The position numbers and the translations under genes were made by a program. Below, one piece after another: positions 17 through 32,000 of a stretch of DNA of 32,000 bases. Origin of the DNA: Candidatus Saccharimonadota bacterium (GTDB taxonomy: Bacteria > Patescibacteriota > Gracilibacteria > Absconditabacterales > Absconditicoccaceae). The stretch spans positions 1,110,001 to 1,142,000 of the forward strand of contig CP006913.1 of NCBI GenBank assembly GCA_000503875.1. Reading direction: 5' to 3'. Below the pieces are notes generated by a model that saw nothing but the letters and a program-made list of their open reading frames with translations, did not search any database and was not told the DNA's origin. The number at the start of each line of letters is the position of its first letter. The first letter of the stretch is position 1.

Positions 17-3000
17 CTATAATCTTGACAATACCAAGCAGAAGGAAAGGATTCCAGTAAAGGTATATGGAATACCAATTTTCACTTCTTGAGCATCCAT
101 AGTAAGAGAGGTTCAGTAGACACATTCAGTAACTCATCACGTGATGGTGAGAGAAATATTTCCTTGAGTTCAATTTCAAGAAGTTCAATTTCAAGAAGTT
201 CAATCTGTATATAGGATAGAATCAGAAGTAGTATAAATATCTCAGTTGGCAATAAATTGTGCAGAAATAGTTTTTTCACTGTATCACTCGGATAATACCC
301 AAGATTTAGTAGTAGAAATAGGTTCCCAATCAGACCAAATAATACCGTTATTAGAAAATCTCATTCCTGTGGCAGTAGGAGCAGCTATAGTAAGATTTAC
401 AGATTGAGAAAGCGTAGAAGCTTCATCGTTATTTATGACAAAAGATCAAGTAGATCAAGCGATAGCAAAATAGGTAAAATGATTTGTGGTAAAAGAAACA
501 TAAGATTGTCCATCAATTTCAGAAACAATACCACCTTTTTCAAATATCCAATCTACACCATTTTGAGATGAGTAGATAGAGACAGGGTCTCAGATAGAAG
601 AAGTAGGAGCAGGAATACCTAGAGTAGCAGCTCAGTTGGTTAGTGTAAGAGATTCAGAAGGACTACCGACAGATATAGCTGAAAGGATTGGTTTGTTGTC
701 TACATTAGAAACTGAGTAAGTAGTAGGGGGATAAATAATTCAATTATAATTTGAACTATCAGATTTTTTGAATTGGAGATTTTGAGGCAATGAAAGCCTT
801 AATGTATTTTCAGAAATAATATGTAAATTTGTGAGTATTTTTCAGCTAGTTTCTTTAAGAGATATTTTTGAATTTCCAAAAAAAACATCGCCAAAAGTTT
901 CAACATTTTGATATTCATATCATTTGTTATTAAATTCATCTTTTATATTCAATAAATCACTCGAATTTGGGATATAAACAGGAATATTTCATATCAATGA
1001 TACTATATAATTTGCTGTTTCTTCGTTGTAGGAAGTAAAATATCATCAAACAAAAATTCCTCCATCATTTTCTATCACTATTTTATCGACCTCATTATCA
1101 AATCCATCTCAAATATCAAATGAGTTGTCTCTAGATCAATCAGCATTTAATCTGATAATATTGTTTGCAAGCTGTCCATTATAAGAAGTAAATCGTCCAC
1201 CAACCAAGATTTTTCTATCATCTTGAATTGCAGTTGTCATTATATAAGCAGATCAAATTCAATCATCGAACCCACTTCAAATACCAAATGAAGAATCTAT
1301 AGATCAATCAGTATTTAATCTAACAAGTCAGTTTGCAGGCTGTCAATTATAAGAAGAAAATTGCCCAGCAACCAAAATTTTCCCATCATTTTGGATAGTT
1401 GTTGCATATATGTAAGCGGATCAGTTTCAGTCATTAAAACCATCTCAAATATCAAATGAGTTGTCTCTAGATCAATCGATATTTAATCTAATAAATCAGT
1501 TTGCAGGCTGTCAATTATAAGAAGAAAATTGTCCACCAACAATAATTTTTCCATCATTTTGGATGGTTGTTGTATATATGTAAGCGGATCAGTTTCAGTC
1601 ATTAAAACCACTTCAAATATCAAAAGAAGCATCTCTAGTTCAATCAGCATTTAATCTAACAAGTCAGCTTACAAGATCTCCATTGTAAGAAGTAAATCAT
1701 CCTCCAACCAAGATTTTCCCATCATTTTGAATTGCTGTTGTATATGCGTAAGCAGATCAATTTCAATCATCAAACCCATCTCAAATATCAAATGAGCTGT
1801 CTTTAGTTCAATCAGTATTTAATCTAACAAGTCAGTTTGCAGGTTGTCCATTATAAGAATAAAATTGTCCACCAACCAAGATTTTTCCATCATTCTGGAC
1901 AGTCGTTGTATATACGTAAACAGATCAATTTCAATCATTAAAACCACTTCCTATATCAAAAACAGAATCTATAGACCCATTAGTGTTCAATCTAACAAGT
2001 CAGTTTGTAGGCTGTCAATTGTAAGAAGTAAATCGTCCACCAACAATAATTTTCCCATCATTTTGAATTGTTAAAGCAAAAACTCAATCATCAAATCAAG
2101 TCACGGTATTCTTTTTTAAATTTGTATTATTGGTCCCATCAGCATTTAGCTGAATAATATTGTTTATTGTTTCTCAACTGTAAGAAGAAAATTCACCACC
2201 AACAATAATTTTACCATTTTCCAGCAGATGTATATCATAAATATTTGCAGCTAAACCTCAGTCAGTAAAACCACTTCCAACATTAAAAGATGTATCAAGG
2301 GATCAGTCAGTGTTAAGTCTTCTTATTCAGTTTGCAGATTGTCCGTTGTAAGAAGAAAAAACTCATATAACGATTATTTTTCCATCATTTTGGATTAAGG
2401 TTTTACTTACTCTTGCTGGATTATATCAGTTGAGAAAACCTGCTCAAGCAATAAAAGTATTGTCTATAGATCCATCAGCATTAAGTCTAAATATATTAGA
2501 GGTATCTCCTTCCGCCAAAACAGCAAAAGGATTAAACGAAGCCATCATTGTGTTGGTTACTCATCAAACAATAATTTTACCATTACTTTGTATTGTTATG
2601 TCATTAACACTAAACAAATTATGAAATATATTTTCATATGCAAAAGTAGAGTCTATAGACCCATCGGTATTTAATCTTATTAGATTTTTTCTTTTAATTT
2701 GAGTCCAACTAAAATTCCAAGTTTGTCGGCTATAACCATTATTTATACAACTTTGTTCGGTTTCTCATTCAATAGTTCCATTTTTGTCGTAACAAAAACC
2801 TGCCGATAAACAACTTTCTTCTGTTGTATATTGTGGTTGTGGTTTTTGTCCTTGGTCTATACAATAATATTCATTAGGCGAAAACTCAAATTGTCCTCCA
2901 ATTAATATTTTTCCATCATTCTGGATTGTTATTGTACTTATATAAGTAGATCAATTTCATCCATTAAACCCACTTCATATTATAAATGAAGAATCTCTAG

Positions 3001-3595
3001 ATCAATCAGCATTTAATCTAACAAGTCACTTTGCAGGTTGTCCATTGTAAGAAGAAAATTGCCCACCAACCAAGATTTTTCCATCATTTTGAATTGATAT
3101 TTTTTTAACTGAACCATTGTATGAACTATTAAACCCACTTCCTATATCAAATGAAGCATCTTTAGATCAATTAGCATTTAATCTGATAAGATTGTTTGTA
3201 AGTTGTCCATTATAAGCCGTAAAGCTTCATCATACAATCATTTTTCCGTCATTTTGAAGCGCTATTGATTCTACTCAATATCAAGAATATTCATCCTGAA
3301 ACCCAGTTCATGTCAAAAAAGAAGCATCTCTAGATCCATCAACATTTAATCTAGTGATGTGATTTATTTCTTCTCAATTATAAAGATTAAAATTTCAAAC
3401 TATAACCATTTTCCCATCGTTTTGAACAGCGATAGATTTGACTCTATTAAAAAAACCACTTCCAATATTGAAGGAATCACCTACTTCTAACGCTCAAAAA
3501 GATTTATCTATACCAGCTTGCCAAGCATGTCAAAAACTGCCAAAAAGCAATACAAAAGACGCCATTATTCAAATGGTATAAAATAACTTTTTCAT
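17..3595 (-). CDS. Secreted giant repeat protein (1192 aa with TGA=Gly): signal peptide, ~14 tandem ~56-aa delta-60/DUF5122-type beta-propeller repeats, and a C-terminal non-repeat domain
   Basis: ATG at 3595 (MKKLFYTIGIMASFVLLFGSFGHAWQAG, signal-peptide-like). Hand translation of the minus strand with TGA=Gly runs without TAA/TAG to TAG at 17-19, and the length of 3579 nt is divisible by 3. Repeat consensus is RLNxDGSxDxSFDIGxGFNDGNGSAYxYTTxIQNDGKILVGGxFxSYNGQPANGLV. I counted ~77 in-frame TGA, which is why no minus-strand ORF of 60 aa or more appears across most of the gene in the track. Confidence 0.8.
168..204 (-). repeat. In-frame 15-bp microsatellite (about 2.5 copies of gttcaatttcaagaa) encoding (GTSGN)n in the C-terminal domain of the repeat protein
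   Basis: Direct reading gives gttcaatttcaagaa at 168-182 and 183-197, plus a partial copy at 198-204. On the coding strand this is tga act tct tga aat repeated. Confidence 0.7.
1010..3490 (-). repeat. Coding tandem repeat array with a 168-bp (56-codon) period, best conserved at 1100-2100 and interrupted by a Cys-containing insert at ~2640-2900
   Basis: Near-identical strings recur in register, for example aaatatcaaatgagttgtct at 1111 and 1447 (336 bp, or 2 x 168, apart). Many repeats share ccatcattttg and tcaatttcaatcat variants. Confidence 0.85.
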
Positions 3596-4757: not shown

Positions 4758-5171
4758 ATGAAAGATAAAGATTTTGATGGTTGGAATAATGAAAAAAAGA
4801 AAATTGATAAAGATTTTTCAAAAAAACATCTATGGGTAAATAAAAGAGAGATTCGACTTTATTATGTATGAGTTAATATATGAAATGAAATAAGCAAAAA
4901 TTCGCCATATATAAGACCTTGTTTAATTATAAATAATTATTTTATAGGCGATTTAATCGTTATAATACCCATAACAACAAAATATAAGCAAAAATTTGAA
5001 AAGGTTTTTTATAAATTACCAATAAAATCTAATATATCTAGTTTTTTGATGCTCAATCAAATAACTGTTATTAGTAAAAAAAGATTGGTGAGAAAAATTT
5101 ACATAGAAAATAAAAAAATATCAACAATAATTTTTGAAGAAATTATAGATAAAATGAAAAATTTATTATAA
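4758..5171 (+). CDS. PemK/MazF-like toxin-fold protein, paralog 1 (137 aa), with no adjacent antitoxin ORF
   Basis: Translation with TGA=Gly gives FDGWNNEKKKID...REIRLYYVGVNIGNEISKNSPYIRPCLIIN...IVIIPITTK...MLNQITVISKKRL. This is the G-x-E...RP-x-hydrophobic...P-x-T...Q-x-R/T-x-x-KR pattern of PemK/MazF. It starts 10 nt after the radical SAM stop. Confidence 0.75.
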
Positions 5172-5230
5172 AAAAAACGGCCTTTTGGGCCTCGGAAAAG
5201 CGCATTCATTTAAAATGAACCGCTCAAGTT
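5171..5230 (-). ncRNA. Predicted convergent sRNA 1 (~60 nt), running from the promoter at 5237-5264 to a terminator abutting the toxin stop
   Basis: On the minus strand there is a hairpin at 5199-5224 (about 10 bp including a G.U and one bulge). A GGCC/GGCC hairpin at 5179-5191 follows, then T8 (complement of 5170-5177). No T-tract follows these hairpins on the plus strand. Confidence 0.4.
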
Positions 5231-5236
5231 GATGTA

Positions 5237-5264
5237 ATTATAAATAAAAAAAATAGAAAATCAA
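5237..5264 (-). promoter_or_regulatory. Antisense sigma70-type promoter TTGATT-N16-TATAAT facing PemK-like gene 1
   Basis: The reverse complement of 5259-5264 is TTGATT and of 5237-5242 is TATAAT, with a 16-nt spacer. The rpsL promoter at 14825-14852 and my reading of the dnaX upstream region have the same architecture. Confidence 0.5.
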
Positions 5265-5292
5265 ACATTTTTTTACTTTTTTATAATCATCC

Positions 5293-5802
5293 ATGATCGA
5301 ATTTGAAAAAACATTTCTCCTCAAAACTATTCCCTTTGATTTACAAAAATATCCACATAAAGAGTTAGTTGATCATTATATTCCTATTGAGTCAGAACAC
5401 CCAAAACTCAGGCTTCGCAAACGCGGAAATCTCTACGAAATCACCAAAAAAACGTTGGTCCAGGAATGAGATAGTTCAGTCCAAAGAGAACAAACCATAG
5501 AACTTTCAAAAGTAGAATATGAGGCATTGGCAGAGCTTCCCAATAAATTAATTCACAAAATTAGGTACTATGTCCCATACGAGGAATTTATCCTGGAAAT
5601 AGATCTTTTCCAAGAAAATCTCGATGGCCTCATCCTCATGGATGTAGAATTTCCAGACCGCCAAACAATGGAATGTTTTACTATGCCAGATTTTTGTCTA
5701 GCCGACATTACGCAAAACGAACTTTTTGCATGAGGTATGCTTTGCGGCAAAACCTATGCGTCTTTAAGTGGATTAATTAAGCAGTACATGGGAGAAATAT
5801 AA
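5293..5802 (+). CDS. CYTH-domain protein (triphosphate tunnel metalloenzyme / CyaB-ThTPase family), 169 aa
   Basis: N-terminal MIEFEKTFLL matches the ExExK CYTH signature. Also present are LRLRKRGNLYEITKK and ILEIDLFQENLDGLILMDVEF. Stitched across TGA at 5467 and 5731. Confidence 0.75.
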
Positions 5803-7670: not shown

Positions 7671-8084
7671 ATGGAAAACACCTTTTCTTTATTTGATAGT
7701 TGGAACCAAGAAAAAAAGCATATTCACCAATATTGATCAACCTGAAGAATAAAAGATTTTTATATTAATCATAGAGAGGTTTGGTATGTTAAATTAGGTA
7801 TTAATGTTTGATATGAGCAAAATTGAAAAACTGAGTTTAAAAGAGCGGTTTTGATTATAAAAAAAATAGGTAACATTTTTCTTGTAATCCCAATGACAAC
7901 AAAAGAAAAAAACAATATTTATCACTATAAACTAATATCTTTTAAATGAAAGGTTTCTTGGTTAATACTTTCTCAGTTAAGAACTGTAGATAAGAAAAGA
8001 TTTATAGAAAAAATCTGAGAAATTAGTACAGAAGAACTTAAAATAATTAAAAAAAATCTGAGCAAATACTATTTCTCAGATTAA
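7671..8084 (+). CDS. PemK/MazF-like toxin-fold protein, paralog 2 (137 aa), solitary
   Basis: Contains FDSWNQEKKHI...REVWYVKLGINVGYEQNGKTEFKRAVLIIKKIGNIFLVIPMTTK...LSQLRTVDKKRFIEKIGEIS. It has 7 in-frame TGA and the same length as paralog 1. Confidence 0.8.
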
Positions 8085-8137
8085 CGGTTGTAGCTCAGCA
8101 GTAATGCTGAGGGGATCCCAATAAAGGGACATTTACG
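8049..8137 (-). ncRNA. Predicted cis-antisense sRNA 2 (~89 nt) overlapping the last ~36 nt of PemK-like gene 2
   Basis: Minus-strand hairpins lie at 8115-8130 (5 bp, one pair valid only as G.U on minus) and 8094-8111 (7 bp, 4-nt loop). A terminator follows at 8056-8081 (ATCTGAG/CTCAGAT, 7 bp) plus a T-run (complement of 8049-8055) inside the toxin CDS. No T-tract follows on the plus strand. Confidence 0.55.
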
Positions 8138-8143
8138 TTGTGT

Positions 8144-8171
8144 ATTATAATAATTTTTTTTAAAATTACAA
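8144..8171 (-). promoter_or_regulatory. Antisense sigma70-type promoter TTGTAA-N16-TATAAT facing PemK-like gene 2
   Basis: The reverse complement of 8166-8171 is TTGTAA and of 8144-8149 is TATAAT, with a 16-nt spacer. It lies 60 nt beyond the toxin stop. Confidence 0.55.
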
Positions 8172-10118
8172 ACCATTTTTTCTAAAGCATTATTCCAAAT
8201 TTCAAATCCGCTTTAAATTTTCTCTCCCTGCCACCAACCACCATCCATTCCCCAAAATTACCCCAAAATGTTGTTTTTGTAAAAAGCTAGGTACTAACTA
8301 CATTCTTTGAAAAGATTGTCATTTGCTATAGTTCTTGATATAGATATAGACATTTGTATAAATATCTTTACAAGAAATTGATTGTCCATATAAAACTTTC
8401 TGCTTGCCCATATTTGTTTGCTTCCAAACAAGCATATAGGGATATATCTATATTTCTATGTAAATAAAATACAAAAAAGACAAGAGGGTCGGTTTTTTGG
8501 GATTTTGATCAAAAAAATGAAAAAATTTAATACCTTTTTCACCAAAAATTAAGGAATATTTTTGAAGAGAAAAATCTTTGATATCAAGATTTAGAATTAT
8601 TGTTTCTCAAAAAAACCGTACCATCATTTTCCTCTCAAAAATCATTTTCAGAAAATCTCTCCAAATGGAAAAAATAAAGCAATATTTTTTTCTTCTTTTC
8701 CAAAATTTTCCCCCCAAAATTTTCTTTCTCAATCTTTTTTATCTCTTCAATCATCTTCACCCACCTACACAAAACAAAAAGCCAGAGAAATTGCTTATTA
8801 TACAAAGAGCCTTATTTGCCTTTTTTATCTCTCTGATATCAGACAATATGCCCATAGTTACGATTGCTGGTTTATTGATCAATTCCGCTCCAAAACAGAT
8901 ATTTACTTCTTCAAAACAGATATTTACCTCTCCAAAAATTCGAATAATGTATCCGTTTCACCCAAAATTAGCTCTTTCCCCCAAAAACCCGAAATACCTA
9001 TACAAAACCATCGGTTTAACCACCACTGACACAAAACCACAAAATTTCATCACTACCCACTCAAAATAGATCTTTATCTATATATCTATTTGGCATATCA
9101 AGCCATTTAAGCATAGTTCAATCAATCTATAGATACCTATCAATGTCTTTAAAACAAGGAAACTCGATCAAAACCATTTCAAAAAGCTCCAAAAACCCTC
9201 TTTTTTACAGAAAAATCAGTAGAATTTTTTGTCCAAGAAAAATTTATTTTGCCAAAAGAGCTTAGACAACCAAAATTTTATATTTTGTCAAAAACAGACA
9301 TATTTCAAAAACTAATCAATAAATGACCTAGACAAGAAACCATGCAGAGATACCAACCACCAAAAAATCATTTTCACATGAAGTTCAGATTTTTTTCTTT
9401 TTCCCCTTCGACATTTTATTTGATTTCATGCTCTTTTATTGCTGGGTACAACGCCTATTTCCTCTCCAAAAAGACATTTTGTCTTCAAAGGTGGCTCCAG
9501 TCTTGGTTTATCTTATAATATTTGTCAAAGTTCAGATACAAACTAGGCAAAAACTCATTAAGAACTTCAAAATAAACACCCTTTCTTTCGACTTTTTGTT
9601 CAAACTACCACAAAAAACGACACCAATAACACAAATTCTCTCGTTCTAACAACTATTTTATCATAACAATAAATCTGATTTTCTTTTTTGTTCAAATTGT
9701 CTACCTTATATATACGGAAATTTTGTTTTTCTGTTTTTTCATTTTTGGCGTTTCTCAACTATAATTTATTCTTTATCCAGTAGAGTGAGACATCGCTAGT
9801 CACTCAAGATGACATATATAGTCATTTCGACAGGACAAACCAAGAAAAGTAAAAAAACACCAATTATTGGTCAAACTATTGTGATATAGGGCAAAATGAA
9901 GGACTAATAAGCTATTTGATTATCTATAAGACCAATAATCGTTTTATATTCATTTACACCCACCAACCATTATTATCACCACACAGAAAATAAATATGTC
10001 AATTACATTCTACACCAAACAGACCCAAAACAACGACAAGAGAAAGTCTAAATATACTAGGTAAGAAGCTATGTTTTATATAAATCACCTCAAAATCAAT
10101 GCTTTTTATTACTTTTTT

Positions 10119-13420: not shown

Positions 13421-13813
13421 ATGAACGATAAAAAGGAATTGTTTGATATTTGGGGCAAACAAAAATTTATTATAGACAAAGAGATTTCACCTGTTTTTTT
13501 TAAGGAAAGGGATATGTTTTTTATAAAAATGGGTCAAAATATAAGATTTGAACAAAATTGAAAATGATGGGAATTTGTTAGACCAGTAGTGATAATAAAA
13601 AAATTTAATAACGATGTATTTTGGTGAGTAGCATTATCAACAAAAATTAAAGACTGATTATATTATTATTGTTTTGATGCCAATTGAGCCAAACAATGTG
13701 CTATAATATCTCAATTTAGATTGTATGATAAAAATAGATTAATAAAAAAAATTGGTATGATACCTATAAAAGATTTTTTTCAATTAAAACAAAAAATCAA
13801 AAACCTTTTATAG
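13421..13813 (+). CDS. PemK/MazF-like toxin-fold protein, paralog 3 (130 aa), solitary
   Basis: Contains LFDIWGKQKFIID...RDMFFIKMGQNIRFEQNGKGWEFVRPVVIIKKFNNDVFWGVALSTK...ISQFRLYDKNRLIKKIG, with 6 in-frame TGA. Confidence 0.8.
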
Positions 13814-13868
13814 TTTCTGATTGTTTTATATCCCAACATAAGTTAGGACGATCCCGAAGGAATTTAGT
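13790..13868 (-). ncRNA. Predicted cis-antisense sRNA 3 (~78 nt) whose terminator hairpin covers the toxin stop codon
   Basis: On the minus strand there is a short UUCG-loop hairpin (13852-13861) and a 7-bp hairpin at 13831-13848 (TCCTAAC/GTTGGGA; one pair is G.U on minus but C.A on plus). The terminator is CAGAAAC/GTTTTTG (13798-13819) followed by ATTTTTTGTTTT. Confidence 0.5.
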
Positions 13869-13874
13869 GAAGTA

Positions 13875-13902
13875 ATTATAACAAAAACATTTCAAATTGC
13901 AA
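13875..13902 (-). promoter_or_regulatory. Antisense sigma70-type promoter TTGCAA-N16-(TGT)TATAAT facing PemK-like gene 3
   Basis: 13897-13902 is TTGCAA and the reverse complement of 13875-13880 is TATAAT, preceded by TGT (extended -10 like), with a 16-nt spacer. The 42-nt block 13865-13906 is 38/42 identical to 25014-25055. Confidence 0.55.
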
Positions 13903-14019
13903 ATCAAATTAACCACACCTCGGCGTGGTGCAAAGTCCTCCGCATAGTCGAGTTTTTTTGCTTGTTTTTTTTATAAAAATATCTACAAAAAGGAATCTTT
14001 TATATATTGTTTATCAATC

Positions 14020-14824: not shown

Positions 14825-14852
14825 TTGATTTTCGATTTCATATTCATATAGT
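14825..14852 (+). promoter_or_regulatory. Putative sigma70-type promoter of rpsL-rpsG (TTGATT-N16-TATAGT)
   Basis: TTGATT at 14825-14830 and TATAGT at 14847-14852, ~50 nt upstream of the rpsL ATG. Confidence 0.5.
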
Positions 14853-14903
14853 GTCGTACGCGCAATTTTCGCAATATCTTTAATTGTTTGAAAAATATAG
14901 TTT

Positions 14904-24394: not shown

Positions 24395-24457
24395 AGAAAT
24401 ATGTAATTATAATTCACCATAACATGGTAAATGTTATTTTATTTTGTAATTATAAAA

Positions 24458-24952
24458 ATGGAATTACTTATAAAAAGATTAATTAACAAGGTCAAAGAAA
24501 TTGCAAACGATATTACAATTCCAATTATATATCAGTTTTTGGATCGATTTAATCTTGTTTTATATCTTCATTTTGAGAAAAAGACACCAAATATTGTTTT
24601 TAAACAACGGGATATTTATGAAATAAATTTATGACAAAATGTTTGAAGTGAATTAAACAAGAAAAGACCATGTATTATTATTTCCAATCAATCTTTTAAT
24701 AAATGAAATACAGTAATAATATTACCATTAAAAGGGATAAGAGAAACTACAAGAATATGAATTATCACGATATCTATTGATTTTCTAAAATCTTGACTAA
24801 AAAAACCAACATATTGTTCTTGTTTTAATATTAGAGAAGTATCAAAAAAGAGGATCTGACAATATATTGGTACTATAACAAATGAAAATAGAAAAATCAT
24901 TAACAATAGTTTGTCTATAATATTTTGATTAAAAAAACAAGCCACCCCCTAG
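24458..24952 (+). CDS. PemK/MazF family toxin, paralog 4 (164 aa; canonical core with an N-terminal extension), solitary
   Basis: RDIYEINLGQNVGSELNKKRPCIIISNQSFNKGNTVIILPLKG...GLKKPTYCSCFNIREVSKKRIGQYIGTI. An alternative start at 24431 is possible. Stitched across 7 TGA to TAG at 24950-24952. Confidence 0.8.
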
Positions 24953-25017
24953 AGGATGACTTGCTTTTAAAGTGAATCTCCGATTGTTCGGAGTCAATAG
25001 CATAGGCTATTTATAGT
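24931..25017 (-). ncRNA. Predicted cis-antisense sRNA 4 (~87 nt) overlapping the last ~22 nt of the toxin CDS
   Basis: Minus-strand hairpins lie at 24997-25010 (ATAGC/GCTAT) and 24978-24993 (CTCCGA/TCGGAG). The terminator is at 24937-24964 (GCAAG-T-CATCC / GGGTG-G-CTTGT; two pairs are G.U on minus but A.C/C.A mismatches on plus), followed by a T-run (complement of 24931-24936). Confidence 0.55.
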
Positions 25018-25023
25018 GAAGTA

Positions 25024-25051
25024 ATTATAACAAAAATTTTCCCAATTGCAA
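25024..25051 (-). promoter_or_regulatory. Antisense sigma70-type promoter TTGCAA-N16-(TGT)TATAAT facing PemK/MazF gene 4
   Basis: 25046-25051 is TTGCAA and the reverse complement of 25024-25029 is TATAAT, with a 16-nt spacer. It sits in the 103-nt convergent gap between the toxin gene and rsmA, so it has no protein-coding target on the minus strand. Confidence 0.55.
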
Positions 25052-25055
25052 ATCA

Positions 25056-30377: not shown

Positions 30378-30710
30378 ATGACAATGCTTATAGCACTAAC
30401 CACGTTTCCCAATGATGGGAGAAAGCTCAAACAGTTAATTCAATGACTCATTAAATCAGGAATAGCTGCCTGTATCCAAAGAATAAACTACGTAAAATCC
30501 TATTATATGCGAGAAGGAAAACTCAAAACAGAAGAAGAGAAAATAGTTCTCATCAAATTTCCCAAAGAAAACAAAGACCAACTTACAGCTTTTCTAAAAA
30601 AGAATCATCCTTACCAGATACCAGAGCTGGTTTTTTTGGCACCAGAGGATGTAGACAAAGTCTACCTGGAACGAGTACAATCCCAGGCAAAAAAACCAGC
30701 AAAGAAATAG
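30378..30710 (+). CDS. cutA: CutA1 divalent-cation tolerance family protein
   Basis: LIALTTFPN...GIAACIQRINYVKSYY..EGKLKTEEEKIVLIKF...NHPYQIPELVF. One TGA joins it to track ORF 30507. Confidence 0.6.
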
Positions 30711-30794: not shown

Positions 30795-32000
30795 ATGAAA
30801 GAAGCTCTCTCAAATATTAAAAAATTTCTAAGCCCTATTTGATATACAAAAGGGCGATGGCGATGATTTCTAACAGCAGAAATGTATGATGCATTTCAAA
30901 GCGTTTTTACTGTACAAGTTTGAGTTTTTATTATAGCAGCAATAGAAACAAAAAATATTGAAAATATAAAGTTTTGGGCAATAATTCTTGTTGTAGTAAA
31001 TATTTTTTCTTATTTTTTTGGATGGGTAGCAGAGATGTGTCGGGAGTCAGCAAATGGTAAGGTAGATATGTGATTAAGAAGAAAATATTTTGAAAAATAC
31101 ATTCATCTAGACAATACAAAAGTTGAAACTATATGAACATGAAAAATGCAGAATATTATTTTTGATGGAATTTCAAATCGAGTATGATTGGTAAATGATC
31201 TTTTTGTAGCTATTCTAGTAGAAATATTAGCCATTATTTATGCGTTTACATTGATAGCAACAAAAAGTCCAAATCGAACATATTTTTTGTGATTTACATT
31301 ATTGTTTATTGTGGCAACATTTTTAATTCGAGTTTGACTATGAATATTACAAAAAACAAGAAAACAAGCAAAAGAAATAAATATGGATCTTGCTCGTAGA
31401 GATATTAAAATTCTTATGTCCAAGTTTGAAATATTACAAAACAATAAACTATCCATAGAGATGGATAAACAAGAAGATCTTATCAACAAAAAAGTAAAAT
31501 TACGACAAAGATGAAATACAAAAAAAATCTTTTGGCAAACACCTGCAAGCGGTATTATGGATGCTATGAAAATTGGAATATATGTTTTTGTTGGTATAGG
31601 AATAGTTACTGGTAATTATACTTTTGCTTATATAATGTTACTTCTTCAACTATTAAATATTGTAAGTAGATATGTCTGGAATATTAGAAAATATCTTAAG
31701 GAATGGTATAAAAGTATTGTTCATATAGACAAATTGTGGGAAACATTTGATTCGATTTCTTCTATGAAAAATACGAAGGATATCAAAAAATTTAGTCCAA
31801 AACATTGAGACATTTTTCTTAAAAATATCAGTTTTTCCTATGAAAAAAATAAAGTCTTCGAAAACTTTAATCTCGAAATTCAAGGCTGAACCAAGACTGC
31901 TTTTGTCTGAGAATCATGATGATGAAAAACAACTTTGATCAAACTATTGGCTGGATATATCAGGCCAGATAAATGAGAAGTGATTGTAGATTGACAAAAA
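30795..32000 (+). CDS. ABC exporter, fused permease/ATPase (MsbA-like), 3'-truncated by the window edge
   Basis: It has an N-terminal six-helix-type TM region, then the start of the NBD: FSYEKNKVFENFNLEIQGGTKTAFVGESGGGKTTLIKLLAGY. The Walker A Gly codons at 31908, 31917, 31920 and 31923 are all TGA. Confidence 0.85.

Follow-up and report, generated by a model that had tools for sequence, protein, structure and literature searches.

We analyse here a stretch of 32,000 nucleotides (positions 1,110,001 to 1,142,000 of contig CP006913.1, assembly GCA_000503875.1; hereafter the window) in which four genes for toxins of the PemK/MazF family, named T1 to T4, are each faced by a convergent gene for a small RNA (sRNA) on the opposite strand. 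The proteins of T2, T3 and T4 are identical to P148_SR1C00001G1037, G1040 and G1056 of candidate division SR1 bacterium RAAC1_SR1_1. Most likely the sRNA serves as the antitoxin of the toxin that it faces, and the reading that we favour, with moderate confidence, is that each locus is a module of a MazF/PemK-fold toxin and a convergent, antisense-acting RNA antitoxin, belonging to the same family as the sRNA CJpv3 and the toxin pVir0047 on plasmid pVir of Campylobacter jejuni. The arrangement was first proposed in a model's reading of the letters alone, made with no database search (the sequence-only reading), which had regarded it as undescribed.

The window has a G+C content of ~31% and yields long genes once TGA is taken as a sense codon, whereas translation table 11 leaves it as short, broken open reading frames (ORFs); TGA at glycine positions of conserved MazF motifs (e.g. 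GxNxG) fits code 25, as far as the sequence can tell. All four toxin genes are on the plus strand: T1 at 4758..5171 (137 amino acids (aa) in code 25), T2 at 7671..8084 (137 aa, P148_SR1C00001G1037), T3 at 13421..13813 (130 aa, G1040) and T4 at 24458..24952 (164 aa, G1056). Their matches to the Pfam family PF02452 (PemK_toxin) score 33.7 bits (E=4.4e-8), 53.8 bits (E=2.5e-14), 25.3 bits (E=1.8e-5) and 69.8 bits (E=2.6e-19), respectively, all above the gathering cut-off of 23.1 bits, and the four PemK/MazF-fold genes in 32 kb announced by the sequence-only reading are thus borne out. A profile of the family matches Bacillus subtilis MazF (4mdx, 1ne8) with E=1e-11, and its motifs RP(V/C)L and (I/L)T(T)K align with R25 and T48 of that protein, which we take to be the catalytic residues; the Arg is invariant across 87 sequences. 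The AlphaFold2 (AF2) model of T3 (pLDDT 82) consists of an N-terminal helix (residues 3-20, lower confidence), a MazF barrel and a C-terminal helix, and the top 50 Foldseek matches to this model are all MazF and include no ToxN; the proteins of S. aureus and B. subtilis lead the list. In the first ~25 residues of the family the F, W and K of a motif FDxWNxxKK are nearly invariant (the extension of T1 reads FDGWNNEKKK, and the N-terminus of T4 is longer and unlike those of the other toxins), and no counterpart of this segment was found in solved MazF structures. The toxin part would be a MazF/PemK-fold endoribonuclease, presumably toxic, with a subfamily-specific N-terminal helix bearing FDxWNxxKK. 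PHROG 9567, a 'MazF-like growth inhibitor', spans the full toxin length including the N-terminal extension.

The exact promoter motif TTGNNN-N16-TATAAT occurs seven times on both strands of the window, and four of the seven copies stand immediately 3' of the four toxins, on the minus strand. They face T1 (5264-5237, with the -35 hexamer TTGATT at 5264-5259, N16, and the -10 hexamer TATAAT at 5242-5237), T2 (8171-8144, TTGTAA-N16-TATAAT), T3 (13902-13875, TTGCAA-N16-TATAAT) and T4 (25051-25024, TTGCAA-N16-TATAAT, with TG just upstream of the -10). The distances from stop codon to -10 are 65, 59, 61 and 71 nt for T1, T2, T3 and T4, so that a convergent promoter shortly past each toxin stop, as claimed by the sequence-only reading, is seen at four loci of four. 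Generic promoter-like sites are not enriched over shuffled sequence (75 vs 77.9 and 68 vs 64.4), hence the signal is one of placement and not of density. As had also been remarked, the promoters of rpsL (14826-14853, TTGATT-N16-TATAGT) and dnaX (TTGAAA-N16-TAGAAT) share with those of the sRNAs the common form TTGNNN-N16-TAnnnT, which makes the sRNA promoters strong versions of the normal promoter of this organism. Between a point just 5' of the -35 and about +12, the units of T3 and T4 agree in 37 of 41 positions (13862-13903 vs 25011-25052, minus strand), and this promoter identity stands despite strongly different N-terminal regions of the two toxins. There are seven copies of TATAATTAC in the window where 0.8 would be expected. 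Just upstream of T4, at 24403-24454, two more minus-strand copies of TATAATTAC are embedded in the near-palindromic GTAATTATAAT with no TTG -35, and they probably belong to T4's own plus-strand promoter region.

With start sites placed 7 nt after the -10, an offset borrowed from the mapped start on pVir, the minus strand past each of the four promoters was computed to fold as two or three hairpins followed by a U-tract. To judge by its sequence T3 is the canonical member, T2 and T4 are variants of the same layout and T1 is a two-hairpin derivative. The unit of T3 (13786..13902, minus strand) has the canonical form of the family: the predicted start at ~13868 is followed by AAAU, a hairpin P1 of sequence UCC[UUCG]GGA (13861-13852), a UC linker, a second hairpin P2 (13849-13830) and a terminator hairpin (13822-13795) with the toxin stop codon in its loop and a U-tract to ~13786. 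In the unit of T4 (24931..25051, minus strand) the predicted start at ~25017 is likewise followed by AAAU, P1 (~25008-24999) and P2 (24993-24978), and the stop codon is again in the loop of the terminator hairpin (24964-24938), after which comes U7 (24937-24931). The unit of T2 (8047..8171, minus strand; predicted start ~8137) has P1 at 8130-8115 and P2 at 8111-8094, and its terminator hairpin (8082-8055, U-tract to ~8047) lies within the toxin coding sequence (codons KKNLSKYYFSD). The predicted T1 sRNA (5170..5230, minus strand, ~61 nt, start ~5230) consists of a 12-bp first hairpin (5225-5198) with two G.U pairs that are C.A mismatches on the plus strand, and a terminator with the stem GGCC/GGCC (5191-5179) and U8 (5177-5170), whose overlap with the toxin is the stop codon only. 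Both T1 elements named by the sequence-only reading, the hairpin and the GGCC hairpin whose U8 ends on the stop codon, were recovered by folding, and its view of this locus as the least typical of the four agrees with the limited overlap and the two-hairpin form. For T2, T3 and T4 the predicted overlap with the coding sequence is 38, 28 and 22 nt, and the predicted 3' ends of the four RNAs reach 2-38 nt into the stop codon or coding sequence. The minus strand is indeed the structured one, since the G.U pairs, tetraloops and U-tracts are specific to that orientation. The accompanying statement that the RNA bodies are not conserved between loci needs correction, as the RNAs have some features in common, in view of the 37/41 identity of T3 and T4 and of the layout AAAU-P1-linker-P2-terminator common to T2, T3 and T4.

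No antitoxin-like small ORF, whether of the MazE/PemI, AbrB or ribbon-helix-helix (RHH) type, is present beside T1-T4 among code-25 ORFs of at least 25 aa within 350 nt, in agreement with what had been noticed before. A minus-strand peptide was considered as the protein antitoxin and rejected: there is no conserved small ORF, the minus-strand peptides at the four loci have no Pfam match, and the reading frame differs between the window and the close relative L001. No ToxI-like tandem RNA repeats were found near the toxin genes. As for known RNAs, a scan of the window at Rfam gathering thresholds returned tRNA-Lys only, and none of 4227 Rfam families, the pemK RNA motif included, matched the elements of the window and ten further loci at E<=5-10; a PADLOC scan for known defence systems gave no match either. 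The pairing of the sRNA 5' domain with the toxin translation start region gave no signal, the cognate energy being -14.9 kcal/mol and the non-cognate one -14.4 kcal/mol, and with no excess complementarity to the translation start there is no evident trans antisense target.

The units of T1 and T2 are kept in three relatives, L001, L002 and L003. T1 has orthologues in L001 (94% identity) and L002 (81%) and a syntenic one in L003, an Absconditabacteria sequence in which the gene order radical SAM, PemK, 169-aa gene, ComEC, PemK is preserved. The counterparts of the T1 promoter read TTGAAA-N16-TATAAT in L001 and L003 and TTGATT-N16-TATAAT in L002. In the first hairpin of T1 a C-G pair is changed to U-A in a compensatory manner in L001 and the upper stem is replaced in L002, and the terminator with its 5' flank is identical in three genomes; these orthologues show that the T1 RNA unit is under selection. 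The P2 stem of T2, CUCAGC/GCUGAG, becomes CCCUGC/GCAGGG in L003, again by compensatory substitution.

Several other features of these relatives were observed. Between T1 and its counterpart at 30-479 of L003 (GCA_028693445.1) the first 17 residues are almost the same and the remainder is only ~35% identical; the sRNA facing T1 has the two-hairpin form and that of L003 the canonical one, which looks as if toxin core and RNA had been exchanged together as a cassette. At 430-479 of L003 the ORF of the orthologue reads through an in-frame TGA exactly at the end of the T2-type protein (…YF-TGA) and continues for 17 further codons, which span the entire sRNA gene. L003 (1-6417) holds three PemK modules and a HicAB pair within 6.4 kb, and at ~2700-2900 of L018 a second PemK gene begins right after the sRNA promoter of the first module.

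The same unit extends far beyond this lineage. When one genome per species was searched with a T3-like alignment, 29 loci were obtained, distributed among Peribacteria, Saccharibacteria, Nomurabacteria, Gracilibacteria, other Patescibacteria, Campylobacterota and one gammaproteobacterium. At nearly all of them the opposite strand carries TTGAC(A/T)-N17-TATAAT, then after ~7 nt (A/U)ACAAAU or GUAAAU, a P1 of the form UCC[UUCG]GGA or GGC[UUCG]GCC, UCG, a variable P2, a spacer and a terminator hairpin over the last codons of the toxin; the T3-type core was found in at least 30 loci of other phyla. In a set of 45 homologous loci from Patescibacteria, Campylobacterota, plasmids and a prophage, some of them close relatives so that the counts overstate the independent observations, the convergent promoter that the sequence-only reading had asked to be sought is present on the minus strand of 42; the plus strand of these windows has it in 4 of 45, and in the background 13.6% of windows have it. 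A strict form of the motif occurs in 33 of 45 loci vs 1.5% of background. The unit is also found beside T1-like, T4-like, plasmid and prophage homologues, and at the T4 homologue in L038 it is almost identical to that of T4. At T1, T4 and pVir the layout is kept and the conserved core sequence is absent. Family members with a convergent hairpin-rich unit were further noticed in Campylobacter prophage CJIE4-3 (L041, 711-1145), between the terminase and portal genes, and on small plasmids of Helicobacter (L040, H. suis, 5.8 kb) and Nitratiruptor.

The predicted RNAs are more stably folded than their dinucleotide shuffles (mean z-score -3.55), and in 25 of 33 loci the plus strand is the less stable of the two (Wilcoxon p=0.003). 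P1 covaries, with UA in 22, GC in 8 and AU in 1 at one pair and CG in 23 and GC in 8 at another. P2, assessed by per-locus folding and shuffles as its stems vary in length, forms a hairpin at every one of 32 loci, built from 29 distinct sequences, its energy being -10.9 kcal/mol vs -3.0 for the shuffles. Together with the compensatory changes in the T1 and T2 orthologues, these counts, to which the caution about close relatives also applies, speak for the covariation that the sequence-only reading had suggested be looked for. The loop of P1 is UUCG in 27 of 32 loci and reads so on the minus strand only; tetraloops of P2 are of the GNRA type in 10-11 of 22 cases on the minus strand, and 3 would be GNRA on the plus strand.

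A reverse search with the 17-nt core AAATTCCTTCGGGATCG in viral and metagenome contigs gave 127 matches. All 15 copies with a promoter upstream are convergent to a PemK homologue (15/15), and the other 111 matches are without promoter, in unrelated coding genes. AAATTCCTTCGGGATCG was seen to recur in an unrelated ~140-nt repeat of marine metagenome contigs (L107 286-579; L059, L060, L068, L070, L071, L075, L151), as well as in frame in several protein-coding gene families, hence the core sequence alone is not diagnostic and it is the core together with the promoter that is specific.

The family includes a member with published transcription data, namely CJJ81176_pVir0047 (NC_005012.1 30630-31034) on pVir of C. 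jejuni 81-176. T3 matches it by tblastn with E=4e-12 over 86% of its length; the identical residues are 47/134 for T1, 44/136 for T2 and 51/130 for T3 (35-39%), and T4 matches over the core only. Like the SR1 toxins, pVir0047 has the N-terminal FDxWNxxKK motif, and its unit resembles theirs in a convergent TTGNNN-N17-TATAAT, a hairpin-rich RNA and the lack of a protein antitoxin. By differential RNA sequencing (dRNA-seq) a minus-strand transcription start was mapped at 31119; its step height is 16164, that of the toxin start at 30608 is 28 (Dugar et al. 2013, PMC3656092). The same study lists the sRNA CJpv3 from 31119 to 31043 (77 nt) with flanking orientation '><>' and the remark 'Detected on Northern blot' (PMC3656092 Tables S5 and S12), the Northern probe being complementary to the minus-strand RNA. 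As later papers cite it (PMC10470494, PMC7826846), Shen et al. 2016 (Mol Microbiol 101:909) described an antisense sRNA, CjrA, as a type I antitoxin on pVir of strain 81-176. At the locus itself, the mapped start is 7 nt after TATAAT, the listed upstream sequence matches, and the 3' end of CJpv3 is 5 nt from the toxin stop; the toxin mRNA starts 26 nt before the ATG and is thus monocistronic. The protein toxin paired with CjrA was reportedly named CjpT in that work, and it is likely that CjrA is CJpv3 and CjpT is pVir0047.

There are differences between the two settings. Unlike the canonical SR1 form, the pVir RNA is without the UUCG-P1/UCG/P2 core and without a clear U-tract, and it is plasmid-borne in a code-11 host, whereas the SR1 loci are chromosomal, multicopy and placed amid housekeeping genes of a TGA-recoded genome. 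The homologous unit, with its sRNA start mapped and Northern-positive, already existed in published data, so the architecture is not new and the SR1 loci join an existing type. What appears to have gone unrecognised is how widely the family is spread, that its RNA has a conserved core and is missing from Rfam, that its toxins are systematically labelled 'type II', and that it is present in several copies in a reduced code-25 genome.

In the favoured mechanism, the convergent gene would give rise to a structured sRNA of 60-90 nt from a near-consensus sigma-70-type promoter and would end at an intrinsic terminator abutting or inside the last codons of the toxin. Produced in large excess over the toxin mRNA, the sRNA would pair with the complementary 3' end of that mRNA, i.e. 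with the 3' untranslated region (UTR) at T1 and with 22-38 nt of coding sequence plus the UTR at T2-T4; the pairing would lead to mRNA degradation or blocked expression, and toxin would be made only once sRNA synthesis stops. A cis-antisense, type I-like mode is considered the likeliest because toxin gene and sRNA gene overlap tail to tail almost without exception and because the pVir system was classed as type I in print. An opposite-strand sRNA gene complementary to the toxin transcript is predicted at all four loci, and the tail-to-tail order, the shared or overlapping terminator and the strong antitoxin promoter are as in txpA/RatA and bsrG/SR4 of B. subtilis and in par of pAD1 (fst RNA I/RNA II), where a bidirectional terminator is shared.

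Several points weigh against this reading. Typical type I toxins are small hydrophobic membrane peptides and not RNases, whereas the SR1 toxins are soluble MazF-fold proteins of 130-164 aa; among type I systems, RalR/RalA and SymE/SymR have toxins that resemble enzymes. Transcription is demonstrated at the pVir homologue only; the antitoxin function, toxicity and antisense mode at the SR1 loci are inferred, and so is the equation of CjrA and CjpT with CJpv3 and pVir0047. At T1 and pVir the RNA overlaps the stop codon or 3' UTR only, and the T2 orthologue in L003 has the -10 hexamer TATAGA. In ~8-10 loci the terminator is symmetrical (A-tract, stem, U-tract), and the toxin transcript may stop within it; P1-P2 would then have no complementary sequence to pair with. 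Unlike the RNAs of the type I relatives, that of the present family has a 5' domain conserved across phyla, and no complementarity to the toxin ribosome-binding region was detected. The P1-P2 core is nearly invariant across phyla where the toxins are only 40-50% identical. The sequence-only reading had expected non-conserved bodies of cis-antisense RNAs; since the core varies less than the toxin protein does, pairing in antisense is by itself an insufficient explanation, and the invariant core and the symmetrical terminators make a type III-like or mixed mechanism a serious rival. Of what that reading proposed, the minus-strand sRNA genes facing solitary MazF-fold genes and the minus-strand structure stand, and an RNA antitoxin is the best interpretation; the novelty and the purely cis-antisense expectation are not supported, in view of pVir and of the conserved core.

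In such a type III-like or hybrid mechanism, which we regard as possible rather than probable, the sRNA would neutralise the toxin protein directly: the RNase would be bound by AAAU-P1[UUCG]-UCG-P2, which might act as a pseudo-substrate and might make use of the N-terminal helix, and convergence would serve mainly terminator sharing and linkage of the pair. The greater conservation of the RNA core than of the toxin across Patescibacteria and Campylobacterota speaks for it, as do a core that may fall outside the toxin transcript at loci with symmetrical terminators, an N-terminal segment of ~25 residues (conserved F, W, K) with no counterpart in solved MazF structures, and an sRNA 5' domain with no excess complementarity to the toxin translation start. 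The type III toxin ToxN resembles Kid/MazF in fold, its inhibitor being the RNA that it processes at AA^AU, and type III systems in general (ToxIN, CptIN, TenpIN) combine an endoribonuclease of this fold with a structured RNA antitoxin in excess, as proposed here. However, the type III RNA consists of tandem repeats upstream of the toxin on the same strand, whereas the RNA of the present family has no repeats, is never on the toxin's strand and never upstream of the toxin, and its toxin belongs to PF02452 and not to ToxN. That the overlap is strictly tail-to-tail in nearly all loci speaks for a role of complementarity, and T1, T4 and pVir keep the layout without the conserved core sequence. 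Moreover, ACAAAU coincides with the predicted start, hence its conservation may reflect constraints of the promoter or of the initial transcribed sequence, and the pVir member is, as cited in later papers, classed as type I. If this mechanism did hold, for which the odds are less than even, we would be dealing with a large and so far unrecognised MazF-fold toxin family, spread over Patescibacteria (code-25 lineages among them), Campylobacterota, plasmids and prophages, whose conserved structured RNA (AAAU-P1[UUCG]-UCG-P2[GNRA]-terminator) neutralises the protein directly or by a mixture of type I and type III action, with the N-terminal helix as an RNA-binding adaptor.

It is improbable that the sRNA is real but not an antitoxin, being instead a block by convergent transcription or a regulator that acts in trans and moves along with the toxin gene, the toxin being held in check by its own N-terminal extension or a distant antitoxin, or being non-toxic. 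This view can point to T1, which starts 10 nt past the end of the upstream radical-SAM gene and is apparently co-transcribed with this housekeeping-type gene, an arrangement found in four genomes, and to the HicAB toxin-antitoxin pair nearby in L003; but toxin and sRNA occur together almost universally, and reciprocally, in different phyla, on plasmids and in a prophage, the toxins keep their catalytic residues, the pVir sRNA far exceeds the toxin mRNA, and an RNA antitoxin on pVir has been reported, according to the papers that cite the work. That the elements are chance hexamers and hairpins in AT-rich DNA, or merely the toxins' own terminators, is effectively refuted, since, for all that promoter-like sites overall occur at shuffle frequency in a genome of ~31% G+C, four of the seven exact matches in the window take the same position and orientation relative to the toxins, the motif recurs in 42 of 45 homologous loci with the start mapped in pVir, and the compensatory changes, tetraloops and U-tracts are those of a minus-strand RNA.

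In the window outside the modules, the following was also observed. A tandem repeat at 1097-2072 (period 168/336 nt, ~5.8 copies, ~80% identity) lies inside a minus-strand ORF (17-3595, 1192 aa) and is presumably a repeated domain of a surface protein. The next gene after T1 (5293-5802) has a weak CYTH match (E=0.008), and a TATAAT only 5 nt 5' of its ATG (5282-5295) points to a leaderless mRNA or else to expression through extension of the radical-SAM/T1 transcript. About 320 nt past the T2 sRNA promoter (8172-8496) are without a convincing ORF and contain a plus-strand C-rich tract, CCCTGCCACCAACCACCATCCATTCCCCAAAATTACCCC.

The bearing of these loci on the survey of toxin-antitoxin systems follows from how their proteins are named. 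In databases they are called 'type II toxin-antitoxin system PemK/MazF family toxin', and with MazEF/PemIK of type II they do share the fold and the aligned Arg/Thr; unlike those systems, which have an adjacent antitoxin gene, the SR1 loci are without a MazE/PemI-like gene and their toxin has the extra N-terminal helix. Surveys would count such 'type II'-labelled proteins as orphan toxins, and the cognate RNA gene is missed both by gene callers and by Rfam, where a candidate named for its association with pemK, the 'pemK RNA motif' (Weinberg et al. 2017), has a model that remains unmatched on these elements. With a covariance model derived from these loci, many 'solitary MazF' genes would be re-classified, and the genomes of the candidate phyla radiation, whose regulatory RNAs are almost unknown, would gain an RNA-antitoxin family. 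With a conserved core and an obligatory antisense geometry side by side, the family is a good test case for the coexistence of type I and type III action, for which the Campylobacter pVir and prophage members offer a tractable experimental system. For the SR1 bacterium itself, whose reduced genome measures 1.18 Mb, the presence of four modules within 32 kb points to a considerable burden of such elements.

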